Assembly: GCA_051294375.1 (NCBI GenBank)
Contig: JBJCIZ010000639.1
Span: forward strand, 1 to 41,315
DNA from: Paraspadella gotoi
Taxonomy: Eukaryota; Animalia; Chaetognatha
DNA length: 41,315 nucleotides
Direction: 5' to 3'
The notes below the pieces were generated by a model. That model saw only the letters and a list, made by a program, of their open reading frames with translations. It was not told the origin of the DNA and searched no databases. Shown one piece after another: positions 10,906-38,623 of the stretch. The first letter of the stretch is position 1. Every line of letters starts with the position of its first letter. The position numbers and the translations under genes were made by a program.

Positions 10906-12998
10906 GATATTTTGATCATAAGTGTAAGAAAAATATGAAAAAACTATTTATAATCATCATGATCATCATTTTTCGATAATTTTATTACTTTTTCCGAATT
11001 TTGACCAAGAAACATAAATATTTTTGAAAGTTGTAGTTAAATTTTTTATTTAACTTTTTATGCTCTATCAGAATCCATCAAAAAAAGTTAAGATTGATTA
11101 AAAAAATTGTTATCATTATATATTAATATTGTAATTTTAAAAGCAACAATAAAAGCATTAAAATCGAACTTTTTTTTAAAAATTCTTTTTTTACCTAAAG
11201 TAGACTTCATGACTAAAGTTTTGAACCCCCGCCCCTATTGAATTTAATTTCATAGTAGATTTCTAATAGAAAAAGCTATATTTTAAGCTGAAAATTCACT
11301 TTTTATATATTAAATATAGTTTTTTTTAATTTTTAACCCACTTAATGAAAGAATATTTAAAAATGATTTATATTTTTCTTCTATCAACTTTTTGACGAGG
11401 AATTCAAATCTGCAATCAAAATTAAGAAAAGCCTATTTTGAAGATTTTAGATTTTATAAGGATAGTACTATATATAAATAATAAATATAGCCTACTTCGA
11501 AAATTAAAAAACATAAACTTAATTTTTTTTTTAAATAAATGTTCACTGAAGGTATGTTGTTCATAATTAACTTTTAGAATTTTTGTATGTAACTTTCACT
11601 ACGCCTTACTGTGAAGCCGACCTAATTTTGTCGCGGCTCCAGCTCCGGCTCCAGCTCCAGGCCAAATTTTTTCCGGCTCCAGCTCCGGCTCCGGCTCCAA
11701 TATTCATAATATATTCTTTAAATTATATAATTTAAATTTTGATTATATTTAATATTTATTTTATATTAATCCCACCGCTGCCACCACAATTTAGTAACAA
11801 GGCAGGGATTTCTAAGCGAAATCAAAGTGGATTTTATTTCTTCAGAAAATAGACAGTGAACAAGACGGTGTCAATTTCCAGGCAGAGTGAATCAATACAG
11901 AATTTGGTTCCCTTTTATATGGCCCAAACGGATCAGAGGTAAGGGTAAAATTTCTCGACCATTTGTTCATTGGCCGATGCCATTTGTCTTTCGACCAATG
12001 AGAAAGTTCCATTATATTTCCATTTTATTACATAAATGTTCATTAATATTATCAACGAAATGGACCTATAAACGGACTATAATGTTGTTCATTCCTCACT
12101 TTTAGAATTTTAATTAAAGTTAAATTTAGAAATTTAACTACGCCTTAATATTCAGGGATAAATTTTACTTCATAAAAAATTGAAAGTATTTATAATAAAT
12201 TTAATAGATTAAAAATAAAGAATTATTATTATTTACTTAATCTTGTATGTAATAAATATATGATATTTACTTAATCTTGTATGTAATAAATATATGATAT
12301 TCTATAAATCATGTATATAATATTATATTTTTTAAAATATTTTTTATTTTAATAATTATAATCTTATTTTATTTTTATGAAGCTGGAGCTGGGCATTTTT
12401 ATTTCGGCTCCGGCTCCAGCTCCGGTCAAAAATTTATTTCGGCTCCGGCTCCAGCTCCAGCTCCGGCCAGATAAAAATTCTGGCTCCGGCTCCGGCAAAA
12501 AAAGCTCGGCTCCGGCGGCCCCAGCTCCGGCTCCGGCTCCACATCCCTGGAGCAAACAATATCGGAAATGCCCTCAGTAAGCAGCTGATCATGGCTATTA
12601 AAAGTGTGATATCATAAGGAGTTGAAAATGTAGATATGGCTTCTAATCATCATTTTCTTTGAAATTGTTATGCTTCATATCAATATTCGTATTTGTTTAT
12701 GTTTAATTTACAAAACAAAAACTTTTTAATTATATGTCGCTCTCTCTCCCTTTTAATTCTACATCGCTCTCTCTCTCTCTCTTTTTCTCCGTCACTGCTT
12801 CTTCTGATTTTTTTTTTCTTGATAAAGACGTTCTAAATTAGAATCTAATGGTAAAAAAAACAAAAACACTTGAACCTTCGGCGATTCATTAAGTATTTAT
12901 TTACTCTCTCTCTGGTAACGAGGTCTGTTCCATAGATTTTATCTTTTCATCAATTACTATTGCTCTATGGTGGACTAAAATCCACCAACCGTTCATCA

Positions 12999-13071
12999 GC
13001 AGCCATTGATGCCGGAGGCAAGTCATTCGCCTCCCAACCCAAAGGTCCGGGGTTCTAGCCCGGTGGTCGCC
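12999..13071 (+). promoter_or_regulatory. tRNA-derived (Gly-CCC-like) Pol III head in 5' LTR
   Basis: Acceptor-like stem GC(A/G)GCCA/TGGTCGC, A-box-like TG(A/G)TGCC(A/G)GAGG, loop CTCCCAA, T-arm CCGGG-GTTCTAG-CCCGG. The anticodon stem is broken, so this is not a functional tRNA. Confidence 0.75.
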
Positions 13072-13072
13072 T

Positions 13073-13148
13073 AGCAGTTAAGAGGGACGGGGCGCTTAAC
13101 CCACCTGTAACACGGAGTTACAGCCTGATCCGAAGCTCAGGGACTGCT
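13073..13148 (+). ncRNA. Twister ribozyme (P5-type) in 5' LTR of copy A
   Basis: AGCAGUU(P5) AA GAGG GA CGG GGCGCU U^AA CCC ACC UGUAAC..GUUACA G CCUGA UCCGAAGC UCAGG GACUGCU. T1 CCG/CGG is intact; L2 reads ACC instead of GCC, weakening T2. Predicted cut 13097/13098. Confidence 0.8.
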
Positions 13149-13199
13149 TACATTGAACCATTCTGTCACAACACATAATAATAATTACTGTCTCTTCAT

Positions 13200-13212
13200 T
13201 GGTGAGCTCGAC
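13200..13212 (+). promoter_or_regulatory. Primer-binding site, tRNA-Trp-like
   Basis: TGGTGAGCTCGAC resembles the complement of the metazoan tRNA-Trp 3' end (TGGTGACCCCGAC, recalled); copy B reads TGGTGAGCCCGAAC. Confidence 0.6.
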
Positions 13213-13372
13213 TTCCGAACACAACAGCAACAACAACACTTTCAGGCAACATGCCTCAACCTGGCGATGCACTTTCCGCCCACAACACATCAGGCGACAT
13301 GCCTCAACTTGGTGACGAACTTTCCACCAACAACAACAATTCACTGAAGAGATGCGACTGACTTCTCCCTAC

Positions 13373-13384
13373 GGGAGGGGGGGA
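13373..13384 (+). promoter_or_regulatory. Polypurine tract
   Basis: GGGAGGGGGGGA directly before the TG of the 3' LTR; conserved in copy B (36489-36500, -). Confidence 0.85.
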
Positions 13385-13419
13385 TGTATGGTGGACTAAA
13401 ATCCACCAACTGTTCATCA

Positions 13420-13492
13420 GCGGCCATTGGTGCCAGAGGCAAGTCATTCGCCTCCCAACCCAAAGGTCTGGGGTTCTAGCCCAGTGGTCGTC
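13420..13492 (+). promoter_or_regulatory. tRNA-derived Pol III head in 3' LTR
   Basis: GCGGCCA...TGGTCGT acceptor-like stem, TGGTGCCAGAGG A-box-like, T-arm CTGGG-GTTCTAG-CCCAG. Confidence 0.75.
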
Positions 13493-13493
13493 T

Positions 13494-13569
13494 GGCAGTT
13501 AAGAGGGACGGGGCGCTTAACCCGCCTGTAACATGGTGTTACAGCCTGATCCAAAGCTCAGGGACTGCT
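13494..13569 (+). ncRNA. Twister ribozyme (P5-type) in 3' LTR of copy A
   Basis: Same fold; L2 GCC intact, 7-bp P3 UGUAACA/UGUUACA, L4 UCCAAAGC (one T1 mismatch). Predicted cut 13518/13519. Confidence 0.8.
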
Positions 13570-13863
13570 TACATTGAACGGTTCTGTCATTAACACAACA
13601 ATAATTACTGTCTCTTCAAAAGTAAATTTTATTTTTTCATGTCAATGAGCAAAGCGTTCGAACGATTCTCCAATTAAAAATTCTTCTGGAAACTTAAATT
13701 CTTAAAGTTGTTAAGCATTTCTTTATTGTATAGATGGCGCATGCGCTAGCATCGTTGTTTATGAAAAAAGAATGATGTTGATTCAAATCCTGGCGACCCC
13801 TTTTTTTTACATTTAGTTGCAATGACCCAAAAGTACCAATAGAGCATTGACTTACCAAAAGGA

Positions 13864-16441
13864 GATTATCGATAATAATTTAAAACATTTCAAAAAAATA
13901 TAAAGCTAGCATTTTTACTGTTGGGACAGGCTAACTATACCAATATGGGGGTAGGGAATCTGATGGTAAGGTCAAAAACCGTCGCAAACCTCGATATCGC
14001 TTGACTACCAGGCCCTGAATGAGCATTTTTAGATTTTTTTAGAATTTCCAATAATTTTTGTAGTTTATTATTATCCAACTGAAATAAACAATAATTAATT
14101 AGTTTTTTATTCTTTTTTACCCATTTTTAGCCCTGAAACGAGCATAATACCGCAAAAATATTTTTTTTAAAATTATGCTAAAAATTTTATTCTGATTTTT
14201 TTTGTAATCACTAATTTTAAATTTGCAAACATTTAATTCAGAATAAGTAAAAGTCTTTGGTTTGTTTTGGCAATGGTAAAGTTTTATTTATCTTCATAGT
14301 AAACTATGGACATGTTTCGACAAAGTCATATCTTCATCAGCGTAAATTACAAATTTTTGGAGACATGGTTTGAGAAGAAAAGAAAGAGGAGAGAGAGTGA
14401 GAGAGATGGAATGGTTTCCTTTTCAAACCATGTCTCCCAAAACTTTTAATTTGCACTGATGAAAACTCTAGTAATTTACCAAGACCTTATTATCACAGTA
14501 TTATTTTTTAATTATATTAAAAAAAAGAAATTTATAATATTAAAGTAAAATAGATGAATACGATTTCAAAGCTTCAGAATTGAGTATTCAATTATTCATA
14601 TCAGAGAAAGATAGGGATTAATCGCGGGAGAGAGAGAGAGAGCGAGAGAGAAAGAAATAAAGAAAGCAAAAAACAGCCACACTGAAACGGATGAAATAAA
14701 AGGTAAGTATGGGTTTTTGATTGAAAGAATATCCAAATTCATCTCCCTTTTATTCCCATATTTCACCCCCAAAGTTTAAAATTTTTTTTAAATTTCCTTG
14801 AGAGAACGTGTTTCTTAGCTCGGCTAATTAGTATTTGGGTTTAGTGACTAGTTATGTATTAAATTTTATTTTGTTCATAAAAAATTCTATATACATAGCT
14901 TACTCTTATAGATATAAAGATTATATTGTAATAATCCTTTCTTTTTTGTTGCGGTAGTTGTTAAAAAATAGTGAAAATTAGAGGTTCAATAAAATTAAAA
15001 ATAGAAACAAATTGTTGTTGAACCTCAAATTTTCTCTAATAATTAAATTAAATTTCTTAAAAGCTTTTAAGAAAAAACCTTAGTTCATAAAACAGTTTAC
15101 GTTTACACTTCAAAAATATATTATTAACTAATTTAACAGGCATCTTTTTTCAAGATTTTCAGTATTTGTTTATTATTATTAAAAATAGTTGAAGCTTGCT
15201 CTTAAATGACGAAAGATTTGTGGCCGTCCCCCTTTTAAAATACAAAATAAGCTAAGATTTAAAAACACTTAAATGCGCAGATAGCCAGGGCACCAAATGC
15301 AAATTAACTTGCATGTAACGCTGATGATGAAATCAATCACAAAAGATGGCCTCAAGAAGTTTATTGATCCTCAGATTCCTGGAAAGGATCTTTTTCAAGA
15401 CAAAAGTGATGAAAAAAAGATAAGAGGATTAAATTTAATAACAAAATATTAATAGGTCAAGAGAGAAAATAAAAAAGATGAAAGTTTTTCATTTTAAATT
15501 AGAAGTCAAAGATTTGCTTCTGTAAACTTATTTCAGAGACAGGTTCTAGTTGGTTGGCGACTTTGCCATGGCGATATCGCTAGGGCCCTGGCGTTGTCGC
15601 CAGTACCCCCACTAGCGACCTTGCCAGTGATAAAAGTAGTGAGTTAGAGGAGAGGCTCGTGGCTGATGTTGAGACACGTGGATGAACGCATCACCCACGG
15701 GCTCTTCCCCCAACCCTAACCCTAAACCAGGCCTTCTGTTCAACTCCATGCCTCTCCCCCAACCCTCCCGTTCAACTCCCATTCAACCCTAACCCTAACT
15801 GCCTTTGACACGTCAACCACGGGCCAAACATTCATATTTTTTATTTTTTTTTATATTTTGACCTTTGCATTGTGTTAATAAACCAAAATTATTTTTTATA
15901 GTCTTTTTAAAATAAAAAACCGATTGGATTGTTTTCAGTAATCATTTACTTGAAAAATAATAATAAATAAAATAATAAATATAAAATTTAAAAAGTTTTA
16001 ACTTATTTTAAATGAAAGCAAATAGTTTTATATTAAATATATTTTTATACATTTTTATTTAATTTTGATTGAACTTCAACTTTAAAGTGGTTGATAAAGT
16101 CAAAACAGGGAAAAATGCTCCTATTGGGCCCTGTTTTTTAAAACTGTTACTTCAAATTATGATAAATATTAAAGTTTATATAATAAAAAGTGTAATTTAC
16201 TTTTTCTTTAGTTTAAAAAAGTAATTTAAATAGATTAATGATATTAAATGTTTTAAAATGTAGGAAAAATTGGAAAATGCTCGTTCAGGGCCCGGTAGTC
16301 AAGCGATTTCGACTAAACTGAGCAATTTCGACCTCACCATCAAATTTCCCATCCCAAAATTGGTCTAATAAGCCTGTCCCCAACCATTAAAAATATAATT
16401 TTGAGTTTTTTTGAAAGGTTTTGAATTTAATATCGATAATC
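13864..16441. mobile_element. Putative non-autonomous TIR element with ~170-bp diverged inverted repeats
   Basis: 13864-14030 is inverted against 16272-16441 (e.g. ATCGCTTGACTACCAGGCCCTGAATGAGCATTTT vs AAAATGCTCGTTCAGGGCCCGGTAGTCAAGCGAT). No TSD seen. Confidence 0.6.
14305..14344 (-). ncRNA. Minimal type I hammerhead ribozyme in a Penelope-like inverted remnant (~14260-14465)
   Basis: UACG CUGAUGA A GAUA ugacuu UGUC GAAA CAUG UC CAUA: intact core, 4-bp stem II unrelated in sequence to the other copies, one stem I mismatch. A truncated inverted partner ends CTGATGAA at ~14463. Confidence 0.75.
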
Positions 16442-19692: not shown

Positions 19693-20885
19693 TCAATCAT
19701 CAGTCAGAGAGAGATAGAGAGAAAAGAAAACTTTAAAAATAATCAAAATAATGTGTCTTTGGTTTTTAATTTGAACTCTTTTTCACTCCTACGATTCATA
19801 TAATTATATAGCGCTTTATCACATACTTCTACCCACCACAAAATTCATTTCGTTTATCTATCCAATTTTTAATAAACATAATAATTATGAGTAAATTTAA
19901 GTAAAAATACTTCAAGTAAATAATGACTTTTGTTTTTTTTCCATTTTAACTCATTTCACTCGCACGATTCCATCGAACTTTATTTTATCCAGCTCAATCA
20001 CACACTTCCCTACCCTCATACAAAATCTCAAGTCAATTGACCTATCCACTCATGAGCAATTGGCGTTCAAATAGTGAAATATATTTTTTTGTTTTTTCCA
20101 TTTAAACCACTTTCCACTCGCACGATTCCCTCGAAACTTCGTATCCATATCAATCACACAGTTTCCTACCCACACACAAAATTTCATACCAATCCATCCA
20201 TCCAATCACGAGTAATTGGAGTTTTTTGCTAAGGTGGGACGGACGGACGGACGGACGGACGGACGGGCGGACGGACGGCCGGACGGACGGACGGACGGAC
20301 GGACAGAAAGACGGACATCGTTATTTTGCATAATTTATCATAATTCGATGTTCTGACATGATATAAGTGTGTGCCCGACAATATTGAGGGGGCGGACCGA
20401 CGGACCGACGGACCGACAAAGTGAGTTATAGAGTCGGGATCTGCTGAAAAGCAGATCCGACTAAAAATCTTATATAACCGTGCTGTATCACTGAAACTTT
20501 GAAAAAAATATTGAAAATACTTTAGTTATCTAGAACATAATATAATATAAAATAATATAAAATTTAAATACCTTAATGTAAGATAACCTAATATAATATA
20601 TATGTGAGTTAGGTAAAACCTGACAGATAAATAGATAGAAACTTCAAAACTTGGGTTTACTTACAAGTGAGTTGTCGAACAGATGTGTGTGTGCGTGCCC
20701 ACTCGGCTGCGTTTATTAACTCGACTCTCTCGATTTTTAGGTAAATTCGCTAAAATTTAACCCGACACTCAAATATTTGTGTTGCTGATTTTAATTACGC
20801 TTAAAATACCTTTATAATAGCTTTAGTTTACCATTTAAATACAATTATTTTTATAAACTTCTTTGTTCGCACAAAAAACAAAAAA

Positions 20886-22274
20886 ATGAACACTTCTGAA
20901 AGAGGAGGTTCAGTCATGAAACTCGGAGGATTTGAATTCCTTTTAAGAAAGGACAGGTTAGGAAAAAATGGTGAAAAAACATGGCGATGTCGCGAGTCCA
21001 GAAAATTTAAATGCCCAGCCTCCATTAGGACTTTGAATGATCAGGTCCTAGAAGGGCAAGGAAATGCAAACCACTCACATCCTGGAGATCCTGTGCGGAG
21101 TGAAGTGCGGCACCTACAGTCCCGAATTCGGAATGATTCTATCCGAGGCCAAGAATCTACAAGTACTATTTTGTCAACTCATTTGACTGATGTTAATCGA
21201 GACGTTCTTCAACGTTTGCCCAAGAAAGACAGTCTCGCGGCAAACGTCAGAGCAAAGAGAAGAAATACAAACCCTACAAACCCAAATCCTCAAAACAGGT
21301 CTTTTGAAATTCCTGAAAGATATCAAAACATGATTCTTCATGACACAGGCTCACAGGATCCAAATAGGATTCTTGTTTTGGGAGATTTGGATCTTGTGAG
21401 ATCACTTGAAAGTGAGGACTTGTGGCTTGGCGATGGTACATTTAGTGTAGTGCCACATATGTTTTTTCAACTTTATACAATTCATGCTAAAATTGGGACC
21501 AAATATCCCCCATGCATTTACTTTCTTCTGCCAAATAAAACACAGGATACGTACATCAGGATGCTAGAAGCCCTGGTCATAATCCTCCCAAATTCAAATC
21601 CTCAAACAATTCTTTTGGATTTTGAAAATGCGGCTCAAAATGCCTTCAGACTGACTTTTCCCAATGCCGCCATTAAAGGCTGTCTCTTCCACTTAGGCCA
21701 ATCTGTTTTGAGAAAAGTGGCAGAACTCGGTCTAAAAACAGAATATGAAGGAGACGCTGACTTTAACATCGCCATTAAATCCCTCATCGCTTTATCTTTT
21801 GTTCCCGAAATTGAGGTTTTAGAACGATTTATAGAATTGGCTGATACCATTCCTCCTTTAGACAGAGTAGAGGAACTTCTTTCATTCTTTGAAATCACCT
21901 ACATTCAGGGAAGGGATAGAGGCCAGGGAAGAGGAAGGGCTCCTGCACGCTATCCTCCAGAGATCTGGAATCACTTTACGGCACCAAGAGGAAATGTTCC
22001 TAGAACCACTAATGCTGTTGAGGGATATCATAATGGCCTCAATTCATTGTTTCTGTCTCAGCATCCAAGTATCTGGAAACTGATGGATGGCCTTAAGAAG
22101 GACATTTCCATGCACTTAAAGACACAAGCTGATGTGCAGGTAATGAACGACCCACCTGCACGACAAAAATATGTGATTTTGTCCATGAGATTAGCAGCTA
22201 GGATTGATAGCTATGCCAATGCTCATGACAAATTAGCTTATTTAAGATCTGTTGCACATATTTTCAGCTCTTAA
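20886..22274 (+). CDS. Mutator-superfamily (Phantom-type) transposase with N-terminal FLYWCH zinc finger
   Basis: 462-aa intact ORF. FLYWCH W33-x-C35-x7-C43-x19-H63-x-H65; MULE motifs D183 (GDGTF), FQLYTIH, PCIYFLLPNKT, D245 (LDFE), C266-x-x-H269, WN, and E379 (RTTNAVEGYH). Confidence 0.95.
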   Translation: MNTSERGGSVMKLGGFEFLLRKDRLGKNGEKTWRCRESRKFKCPASIRTLNDQVLEGQGNANHSHPGDPVRSEVRHLQSRIRNDSIRGQESTSTILSTHLTDVNRDVLQRLPKKDSLAANVRAKRRNTNPTNPNPQNRSFEIPERYQNMILHDTGSQDPNRILVLGDLDLVRSLESEDLWLGDGTFSVVPHMFFQLYTIHAKIGTKYPPCIYFLLPNKTQDTYIRMLEALVIILPNSNPQTILLDFENAAQNAFRLTFPNAAIKGCLFHLGQSVLRKVAELGLKTEYEGDADFNIAIKSLIALSFVPEIEVLERFIELADTIPPLDRVEELLSFFEITYIQGRDRGQGRGRAPARYPPEIWNHFTAPRGNVPRTTNAVEGYHNGLNSLFLSQHPSIWKLMDGLKKDISMHLKTQADVQVMNDPPARQKYVILSMRLAARIDSYANAHDKLAYLRSVAHIFSS

Positions 22275-36010: not shown

Positions 36011-36302
36011 GTCATAAACATAGGTACAAGTATTCGATATAGCTCTCTCTCTCTCTCTTTCTAACTGCTTATCCCTATCCCAACGCTAATCCTAAAACCA
36101 GATTTCTAATCCTTATCCCTTGCCCTTATCCCTATCCTTAACCCTAATGCCCTAACCCTATCCATAAATTATTCCCTCAATCTAAACTTATCCCTAACCG
36201 AAACCTAAGGCAAAAACTTAATGGGAAACGCCGGCCGTAATTTTTATGTGTGAAGAGACAGTAATTATTGATAAGTGTTAATGAAAGAACCGTTCAAATA
36301 TA

Positions 36303-36377
36303 AGCAGTCCCTGAGCTTCGGATCAGGCTGTAACACCATGTTACAGGCGGTTAAGCGCCCCCGTTCTCTTAACTGCT
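36303..36377 (-). ncRNA. Twister ribozyme copy (3' LTR of copy B), degenerate at P2/L1
   Basis: P3, P4, P5, L2 GCC and L4 UCCGAAGC are intact; GAGAACGG replaces GAGGGACGG. Confidence 0.65.
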
Positions 36378-36728
36378 AGGCGGCCACCGGGCTAGAACCC
36401 GGACCTTTGGGTTGGGAGGCGAATGACTTGCCTCTGGCACCAATGGCCGCTTATGAACGTGTTATGGTGGATTTTAGTCCACCATACATCCCCCCCTCCC
36501 GCAGGGAGAGTCTCTTGCGTCTCTTCAGTGAATTGTTATTGTTGTGGAAAGTGCGTCACCAAGTTGAGGCATGTCGCCTGATGTGTTGTTGGCGGAAAGT
36601 GCATCGCCAGGTTGAGGCCTGTCGCCTGAAAGGTGTTGTTCTTGTTGATCTGTTGTGTTCGGAAGTTCGGGCTCACCAATAAGAGACAGTAATATTGACA
36701 ATGTGTTAATGAAAGAACCGTCAATATA

Positions 36729-36807
36729 AGCAGGTCCCTGAGCTTTTGATCAGGGCTGTAACACCATGTTACAGGAGGGTTAAGCGCCCCGTCCCTCTTA
36801 AACTGCT
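36729..36807 (-). ncRNA. Twister ribozyme copy (5' LTR of copy B), degenerate at L2/L4
   Basis: GAGGGACGG GGCGCU UAA CCC is intact; L2 (UCC) and L4 (UCAAAAGC) are mutated. Confidence 0.6.
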
Positions 36808-38623
36808 AGGCGGCCACGGGCTAGAACCCGGCAAGCCTTTGGGTTGGAGGCGATATGACTTGCCTCTGGGCACTAATGGCCGCTGATGATAAGACGTTGG
36901 GTGGATTTTAGTCCACCATATTGGTAAGCTTTCTCAGCAATAACAACGCGCAACCTTTCGAGTTCTGCCCCTCTCTCTTTTTCTCACTCACTCACTCACT
37001 TGCTAACTCCACTTACTAGTCACTTACTTTTTTCACACACTCTATCTTTTTCACTCAAACTGATGTCTTTGTCTTTGTTTTTTTCCGCACTGTCCTGTAA
37101 ATATTGACCCGACGCTTTACTGTGTATAAATATTTTTACCCTACAAAAAATAATTTTCTCAATCTTAAACTTGTTTGTGTTAACACTGCACATTTTGTTA
37201 ATAACTTGAACTAATCAAAAAATTTTAAAATCTTTTGTTTTTCGTCCTTTCCATTTTCAAACTTTAAGTGGGTATAAAATTACCAGCATACAAATTTTAA
37301 TTAATAATTTTTAGGTGGCTAGTTTTTATAAATGATTGAAAATGGTGTTTTTTTAGGTATTTTTGACAGTTATTGGGTCATATTACTCATAGTTAATTTT
37401 TAAAAGTCTATATATATACATATATTTGGAATCAGCTTGATCCCCTCTTTGCCTTGGGACAGAAAAATTTAATATAGACTGCATATCTCAAAAAAATGGC
37501 AAAATGTTTTAATCTTGTAATCCAAGTTTTTCTAATGTGGTAATATTTTTTTTTAATTTGGGGTTGTCTTAGGTTAAAGCGCACCTTTTACAATATTTTA
37601 AAATCATCACGTAATTTGATTTATTATTTTTAACTATTTTAGTGAAAAAAGTTTTAAACTGATTTTTATGTGATAACTCCTATGTTTTTTTAAATACCTC
37701 CCTGAAATTACATCAATATGTGCGGGCATGTTAGTCGATTATATGGACCAAAAATAAAACAAATTTAAAAAGAAATAGCTGTTTTAGAAGCAAAACAAAA
37801 TAAAAAATAAATCAAGACCTTAGCGCAAAATTTTTGAATTGATTATTTTCCATCAGGTGGGCAATAGAGCAAATTTTCCTTCATCTTTTTACGAAATCTT
37901 AGCTCATTATAACGATAAGTTTATGAGTTATTCATTCCCTGAACTTCGTGGAGTCTAGAGAAAAGGTACTGTATTTATTCGTTTCTTCTTTTTCTTTCTG
38001 TTTATAAATTAATTTTCTTTTCTCAAATTTGATTTTTTTTTAGTATAAAAATTTGTCGTCAATCCAGATTTTTCTTATGCGATTGCGACGATCCTTATGC
38101 TTTTAAGATTTTTTATAGTATCAAAAACAGCTTAAACAGAGGAGTTTCTGACTGCATTGTTTTTTAAGAGATATGTTATTCACACATTACAAAATAAACC
38201 AATCTTCTTTTTAGTTTGAATTCTATCAGCATTTATGTATTTAATTGTATCTTGAGAGCTTTAAATGATTTTGCAATAATTTTTCTACATAACATTCAGG
38301 GAGTAATGACCTAGAATGAGAAACAATAAAAAATGAAAAAAATCAAAGATGAAATTTATTTTTTAACTGCATAGTTTTTTCTACGAGACTGTACATCACG
38401 TCATAAGTAATAAAATTATCAAAATATGATGATGATGATGATTATTAGTTTTTCGTATTTTTCACCCAATTATGATCAAAATTTTACTTTGTGTAGAAAA
38501 CTTTTTGCAAGCTAACTAAATCTGATTTTAAAAATAAAAAAATCTAAAAAAAATTTTTAGTCTTTCCTATTTATAAATAAATAATAAAAAATTAATATAT
38601 GGGATATAAATTAATATTAAAAA

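Follow-up and report, generated by a model that had tools for sequence, protein, structure and literature searches.

The window (the whole 41,315-nt stretch that was analysed) has a G+C content of about 30% and contains one recognisable gene, a MULE/FLYWCH transposase. This gene is an uninterrupted frame of 489 codons at 20805-22274 on the + strand with FLYWCH zinc-finger and MULE transposase domains, and its nearest protein clusters are mostly from arthropods. Apart from this distant MULE transposase, no Pfam family was found in the open reading frames of the window; no reverse transcriptase or other retroelement protein is present among its 16 open reading frames, and no tRNA gene was found in it. 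The window also holds two copies of a short element in which a core is enclosed by two terminal direct repeats. The better preserved copy, element A, carries no annotated protein family and is 51% G+C. Its parts, together with the second copy, element B, are listed here.

12966..13618, + strand: element A, non-coding repeat-core-repeat unit, 653 nt
12966..13198, + strand: 5′ terminal direct repeat, LTR-like, 233 nt
13199-13386, + strand: core between the repeats, non-coding, 188 nt
13200-13212, + strand: PBS-like word TGGTGAGCTCGAC, one base past the terminal CA of the repeat and containing TGG
13373-13384, + strand: polypurine tract GGGAGGGGGGGA, 12 nt, separated from the 3′ repeat by TG (2 nt)
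13387..13618, + strand: 3′ terminal direct repeat, LTR-like, 232 nt
13098..13518, + strand: predicted unit-length RNA, 421 nt between the predicted cuts 13097^13098 and 13518^13519
36251..36920, - strand: element B, second and more decayed copy, 670 nt

In a repeat search, the two repeats of element A match over 203 nt (12966-13168 with 13387-13589) at 93% identity and a spacing of 421, and over a further 26 nt (13173-13198 with 13593-13618) at a spacing of 420. The core of element B is 91% identical to that of element A. Both the PBS-like word and the purine tract are conserved, the first being near-identical and the second identical in the two copies. Each copy is a repeat-core-repeat unit that contains both words, and no multi-copy tandem array was found in the window. 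When TGGTGAGCTCGAC is compared with the antisense of the human tRNA-Trp 3′ end printed in PMC6379413, which served as the reference in place of host tRNAs, 11 of the first 13 bases match.

Relatives of element A are present in one public run (X1), represented by contigs whose source material, DNA or RNA, is unrecorded and which cannot show RNA ends. There, 1149 contigs fall on 12400-14200 and present the family in many variants; in the two sister runs of X1, only 7 and 2 contigs reach it. Position 12966 is a fixed 5′ end in the family, as 14 X1 contigs with unlike flanks end exactly there. High summed depth of X1 contigs was also seen at 12583-12765 and at 13864-14107, which are probably other repeat families, and the DNA between them and element A lacks such depth.

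No target-site duplication of 4-6 bp lies within 6 nt of the ends of either copy (2/2). Element A is flanked by an imperfect direct repeat of 22-24 nt (12933-12954 with 13623-13646), which is offset from the element ends by 11 nt and 4 nt and has a local score of 27 that 0/1000 shuffles reach; no such flanking repeat is present at copy B, where 539/1000 shuffles do as well. The repeat at element A may be a long target duplication or a coincidence of AT-rich DNA.

Within the core, 13242-13335 consists of a 46-nt unit present twice in tandem (85% identical), which recurs in copy B, and several CAACAACA runs occur. The sense strand contains no TTTT run in 12966-13618 or 36251-36920, though the surrounding DNA is about 70% A+T, and the first T runs lie just past the 3′ end of element A. 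Degenerate TTAGGG-like repeats stand beside copy B (36100-36230), and arrays of GCTCCG-type hexamers lie upstream of element A (12405-12540). Immediately upstream of the motif described below, a segment of the terminal repeats (13420-13492, and likewise 12999-13071) resembles a tRNA in layout: GCGGCCA and TGGYCGC make an acceptor-like stem of 7 bp, which is perfect in copy B; GAGGC and GCCUC, 9 nt apart, make a hairpin; and CUGGG-GUUCUAG-CCCAG makes a T-arm-like hairpin that holds a box-B-like word. Neither ARAGORN nor Rfam called a tRNA in this part of the repeat, and in the minimum-free-energy (MFE) fold of the 3′ repeat one long hairpin replaces the tRNA-like layout. A Pol III type-2 promoter was considered for this segment and rejected, as the box-B-like word is accompanied by no convincing box A.

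The twister-like motif of the terminal repeats

Each terminal repeat carries, on the sense strand, a motif whose parts follow the order P5-L2-P2-L1-(P1)-UAA-P2-GC-P3-P4-L4-P4-P5. This is the order of a type-P5 twister, the twister ribozyme reportedly being the class of Roth et al. 2014. The two motifs, and the parts of the one in the 3′ repeat, were placed as follows.

13074..13147, + strand: twister-like motif of the 5′ repeat, parts in type-P5 order
13495..13568, + strand: twister-like motif of the 3′ repeat, parts in type-P5 order
13495-13499 with 13564-13568, + strand: P5 of the 3′ repeat, GCAGU with ACUGC
13500-13504, + strand: L2 of the 3′ repeat, UAAGA
13505-13507 with 13521-13523, + strand: P2 of the 3′ repeat, GGG with CCC
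13507-13511, + strand: L1 of the 3′ repeat, G13507 and A13508 followed by the T1 strand CGG (13509-13511)
13512-13517, and also 13091-13096, + strand: linker GGCGCU in place of a P1 hairpin
13518^13519, + strand: predicted cut site of the 3′ repeat, U13518^A13519, followed by A13520
13524-13525, + strand: GC of L2, 3′ repeat
13526-13532 with 13538-13544, + strand: P3 of the 3′ repeat, CUGUAAC/GUUACAG
13545-13549 with 13558-13562, + strand: P4 of the 3′ repeat, CCUGA/UCAGG
13550-13557, + strand: loop UCCAAAGC of the 3′ repeat, 8 nt

Beyond the order of parts, the motif shares with type-P5 twisters (Rfam RF02684) the 8-nt loop, which is of the type UCCNAAGC in each repeat, and a predicted U^A cut site. 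The UAA word at this site is present in 2/2 repeats of element A (13097-13099 and 13518-13520), and both repeats of element B also have UAA. P3 and P5 stand at places allowed in type-P5 twisters. P4 comprises 5 bp closed by the loop UCCGAAGC or UCCAAAGC (the UCCCAAGC type), seven of whose eight letters equal the rice seed, given for P4/L4 as CCGGTCCCAAGCCCGG in PMC11662667. Both pseudoknots of the class also have their potential counterparts, in that the loop GC can pair with the GC of L2 and the loop CC(G) with (C)GG, the loop-complementary strand that follows the G-A of L1. For T2 (PK1 of PMC11662667), the partner in L2 is GC in the 3′ repeat, AC in the 5′ repeat, owing to an A at 13103, and TC and GC in the repeats of copy B. 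For T1 (PK2), CCG/CGG is complementary in the family majority and in the 5′ repeat, where the third pair, G-C, is present; the 3′ repeat has an A.C mismatch. Compared with the canonical twister CCC/GGG, the CCG/CGG of the family is a two-sided change that swaps the third G-C pair of this larger pseudoknot and keeps it paired.

The motif also fits published descriptions of the class. Twisters of Schistosoma mansoni are laid out as P1-UAA-P2-GC-P3-P4-GUCCCAAGC-P4-GUAAA-P2-GAGGG-P1 in Table 1 of PMC8501958, and the manual criteria quoted from PMC11662667 comprise NC for one pseudoknot, complementarity for the other, an NA cut site, a general-acid A and a general-base G; the motif agrees with this list of parts and with these criteria. 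The base of P3 (13526-13544, CUGUA...UUAC.G) is the same as in the S. mansoni twisters of that table, a likeness that could reflect shared descent of a mobile ribozyme or structural constraint.

In other respects the motif is unlike a type-P5 twister. No P1 helix of two or more pairs was found beside the cut site; between the T1 strand and the U there is instead the 6-nt linker, in which no hairpin is possible. P1 is reported to be dispensable in the twister (PMC11662667) and imperfections of P1 and P2 to be tolerated (PMC11662667; PMC8501958), although cleavage without P1 is described as inefficient (PMC8501958). The linker GGCGCU is identical in 4/4 repeats and self-complementary between two copies, with a self-duplex of -8.3 kcal/mol. 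P2 has just 3 bp, and its register relative to the general-base G is ambiguous: GGG/CCC provides no G before the A, and an alternative register has two G-C pairs and a C.A mismatch followed by G-A, with G-A preceding the T1 strand only here. The MFE fold favours a competing hairpin, CGGG/CCCG, which would use up the T1 strand.

Rfam models give the motif no score. At the gathering score, the whole window produced 0 matches to twister or any other ribozyme; at E≤10, neither 12800-13800 (1001 nt) nor 13480-13585 (106 nt) produced a twister or other ribozyme, and no hammerhead was found in the searches of the window and of 12800-13800. We note separately the result of a stepwise descriptor, assembled from published twister parts and relaxed after looking at the sequence, which calls for the loop UCCNAAGC; P4; UAA-P2-NC-P3; an A-N-G-G strand with P2 pairing; UAA/UGA in L2; and P5. 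Its relaxed form was passed in full by 2/2 repeats of element A and by 0/1000 block-shuffled windows, in which 2077 loop words were reduced to 49 with P4, to 3 that also had the upstream part and to 0 beyond. Neither repeat passes level 3 of the strict form, because each has one non-consensus pseudoknot base (A for G at 13103; A for G at 13553). The first-pass annotation had placed a twister in each repeat; the order of parts and the relaxed descriptor bear this out, whereas the three negative Rfam searches and the missing P1 do not.

Across the four repeats of elements A and B, 0/25 pairs change on both sides, and 92.9% of cells are paired as against 27-44% in slid controls, for a structure that was itself derived from these sequences. 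Copy B has single-base insertions or deletions in the motif of both repeats. In X1, the family majority at 13103 is G (1673.6 of 1776.7 depth, 19 contigs), as it is at 13553 (77880.9 of 81364.9 depth, 82 contigs), where G restores the pseudoknot pair. Among 393 X1 contigs over 13478-13592, variation reaches 1% of depth at only four positions, namely 13533-13535 in the P3 loop and 13553. Upstream, at least nine positions of 13466-13491 vary at 10% or more, and summed depth is highest over 13502-13565 and lower on both sides. The motif is therefore the best-kept part of the repeat, as variation avoids the core and not its flanks. Selection acting on master copies would account for this conservation, and so would a recent burst from a single master. 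A metagenome pattern scan for relatives returned 0 loci with a first pattern; a second pattern gave one locus (L001), which we rejected as a chance match in G+C-rich, bacterial-looking DNA.

Against a twister stand the lack of a P1 hairpin, of recognition by Rfam and of covariation in the family. On balance, the family consensus is probably a twister.

The predicted 421-nt unit RNA

With UAA at 13097-13099 and again at 13518-13520, the RNA between the two predicted cuts runs from 13098 to 13518 and measures 421 nt. It consists of 101 nt from the 3′ part of the repeat, the core with the PBS-like and PPT-like words, and 132 nt from the 5′ part of the repeat. This agrees with the original proposal that two cut sites 421 nt apart enclose a PBS, a PPT and one permuted LTR. 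The proposed 5′-end word AACCCGCC, by contrast, is found at the 3′ repeat (13519), and the 5′ end of the unit itself (13098) reads AACCCACC.

With a motif of type P5, the cuts would leave half a ribozyme at either end of the unit. When the unit or its two joined ends are folded by MFE, P3, P4 and P5 form, and a CCC-GGG helix links one end with the other; folded in this way, the ends would set the 5′-OH beside the cyclic phosphate. The unit is neither rod-like nor unusually stable as a linear molecule (z -1.29, 13/100 shuffles as good), nor is it unusually stable as a circle (z -1.4, 54% paired, 12/100 shuffles as good). Joints in X1 contigs at 13336>13442, 13407>13502 and 13544>13198, seen in one contig each, do not coincide with the predicted cut sites. 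The locus of element A is itself probably a poor source of the RNA, because each of its motifs has one pseudoknot mismatch. A unit-length circular RNA is a sound and reasonable prediction.

These features suggest how such an element might replicate. Both end-repeat motifs, each a probable type-P5 twister without a P1 hairpin on the sense strand, would cut to release the 421-nt RNA of 13098-13518. In the nicked ribozyme, P2, P5 and both pseudoknots could then keep the ends of this unit in contact, and a host ligase of the RtcB type would likely join them into a circle. A borrowed reverse transcriptase would copy the circle, primed at the PBS by a tRNA, possibly tRNA-Trp, and about 1.5 turns of the circle would rebuild both repeats without strand transfer. 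The linker could have a part in this cycle. As it is self-complementary, two motifs could share a P1 by swapping halves, and the two motifs of one transcript may thus pair as a double twister. Double hammerheads swap halves in this manner, and in some viroids they switch between precursor cutting and circle stability. By such an arrangement, precursors with two motifs would cut well, and a circle with one motif would cut poorly.

Comparison with known mobile elements

Like the plant LTR retrozymes (Cervera, Urbina and de la Pena 2016, PMC4918200), element A is small and non-coding, and each terminal direct repeat holds a sense-strand motif, here predicted to be self-cleaving. In both, a PBS follows the 5′ repeat and a PPT precedes the 3′ repeat (PBS-like and PPT-like words in element A), and a double cut, predicted in our case, yields a unit without terminal repeat. 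In plant LTR retrozymes, double cleavage removes the terminal R, and the circle is proposed as the template for reverse transcription; it is argued to be needed in this role because a doubly cut LTR transcript has no R (PMC4918200). The differences are also plain. The motif of element A is twister-like and its host an animal, whereas the retrozymes of PMC4918200 carry type III hammerheads and come from plants; its repeats measure 233 nt against 300-400, and its unit 421 nt against 600-800. Further, the PBS-like word of element A is not tRNA-Met-like, no 4-bp target duplication is found and self-pairing is not strong, unlike the description of the plant elements (PMC4918200).

The animal non-LTR retrozymes (Cervera and de la Pena 2020, PMC7229834) share with element A an animal host and one ribozyme per unit (putative here). 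The 421-nt unit is near the upper range of these elements (about 170-400 nt), and circularisation by an RtcB-type ligase would be expected in both; in vitro, the monomers of hammerhead retrozymes are efficiently circularised by RtcB (PMC7229834). As described there, however, animal retrozymes have type I hammerheads and form multi-copy tandem arrays without LTR, PBS or PPT, whereas element A has two repeats, fixed ends and words that resemble a PBS and a PPT.

Without regard to ribozymes, element A is also similar to animal TRIMs such as PbTRIM of ants (PMC3532108), a sub-kilobase non-coding LTR element with PBS and PPT that is likewise abundant and inserted into AT-rich DNA. PbTRIM has repeats of 152-184 nt, a tRNA-Leu PBS and 4-bp (ATAT) duplications, and no ribozyme is described in the available text of PMC3532108. 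We rejected PbTRIM as a member of the same family because repeat length, PBS and target duplication differ, a separation made on its description and not on its sequence.

Twister-class motifs borne by retroelements, with P1 weak or missing, are known from Perere-3 of S. mansoni (PMC8501958) and from a note on RTE twisters (PMC7761336). There, a coding LINE-type element has a single motif at its 5′ end, which serves 5′ processing and translation, whereas element A is non-coding and has two copies, in terminal repeats. In the literature found, twisters are linked to non-LTR elements only (PMC8501958; PMC7761336) and are not tied to retrozymes or LTR elements, although supplements could list such loci. 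By analogy, the family of element A appears to work like a retrozyme but misses the hammerhead, target-duplication and Rfam twister features.

Proposed retrozyme-like replication and its alternatives

We consider element A probably to be a copy of an abundant, twister-bearing, retrozyme-like family. In the best explanation, to which we give a probability of about 0.5, it is one decayed member of a non-coding LTR-type family of mini retroelements with many copies, whose probable type-P5 twisters without P1 would release a 421-nt RNA, the circle of which would serve as template.

The most direct challenge concerns the LTR character of the element. Element A could instead be about 1.55 tandem units of a 421-nt circle, inserted by a Penelope-like or LINE machinery as in animal-type non-LTR retrozymes, the PBS-like and PPT-like words being coincidental. 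A short target duplication is absent from 2/2 copies, and the imperfect 22-24-nt direct repeat around element A (score 27, 0/1000 shuffles) recalls the animal retrozymes, which are described as having larger target duplications and no LTR features (PMC7229834). Yet that flanking repeat is 11 nt and 4 nt off the element ends and has no counterpart at copy B (539/1000 shuffles), and the 5′ end of the family is fixed at 12966 in 14 contigs. The terminal CA with TGG one base on, the 12-nt purine tract 2 nt before the 3′ repeat, the retention of both words in copy B and the 11/13 match of the PBS-like word to tRNA-Trp antisense also count against it. We regard this alternative as unlikely. An LTR-type element is favoured over a non-LTR one by about 2 to 1, on the fixed 5′ end, the CA followed by TGG, the purine tract kept in copy B and the tRNA-Trp match; the lack of a 4-6-bp target duplication in 2/2 copies and the 22-24-nt flanking repeat at element A count against it.

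Two further readings keep the LTR-like or repetitive nature of the element and question what the motif does. In one, a TRIM-like LTR element bears an active twister that only trims transcripts, for example those from read-through RNA, and no circle is used as template. In its favour, transcript processing is reported for twister variants that sit at the 5′ ends of non-LTR elements (PMC8501958; PMC7761336), and the self-pairing of the unit falls short of the strong pairing reported for retrozyme circles (PMC7229834). Cuts in both repeats would, however, leave no R for strand transfer, the same argument that calls for a circle in plant retrozymes (PMC4918200), and the unit ends carry complementary ribozyme halves that would draw them together; we find trimming as the sole function quite improbable. 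In the other, the element is a plain small LTR or SINE-like repeat whose conserved structure does not cleave and acts in promotion, packaging or primer handling, the likeness to a twister being incomplete. The 3/3 negative Rfam searches, the missing P1 hairpin, the lack of covariation and the competing MFE hairpin speak for this reading, and the conservation could reflect a recent burst from one master copy. Against it stand a descriptor found in 0/1000 shuffled windows, loop, L2, L1 and cut-site letters at twister positions, family variation that spares the core and not the flanks, and the single loop difference from canonical twisters, which is matched by a complementary change in the pseudoknot partner. 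A non-cleaving structure is also an outside prospect in our judgement.

Building on the LTR-type, circle-templated reading, a bolder version may be offered tentatively, and we doubt that it will hold in full: that this is the first twister-based retrozyme and the first LTR-type retrozyme of an animal, with a palindromic linker that has taken the place of the P1 hairpin, allows cutting only as a double twister and leaves the circle, with its one motif, uncuttable. In the literature found, as far as its text was available, all retrozymes are hammerhead elements, those of LTR type come from plants only, and those of animals lack LTR features. If the reading is true, a twister-bearing LTR-type family in an animal would mean that the retrozyme lifestyle is independent of ribozyme class. 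More broadly, it would supply a function for many 'orphan' eukaryotic twisters, and it would imply that Rfam-based surveys miss permuted twisters without P1. The palindromic linker, meanwhile, would be a simple possible switch between precursor cutting and circle stability.
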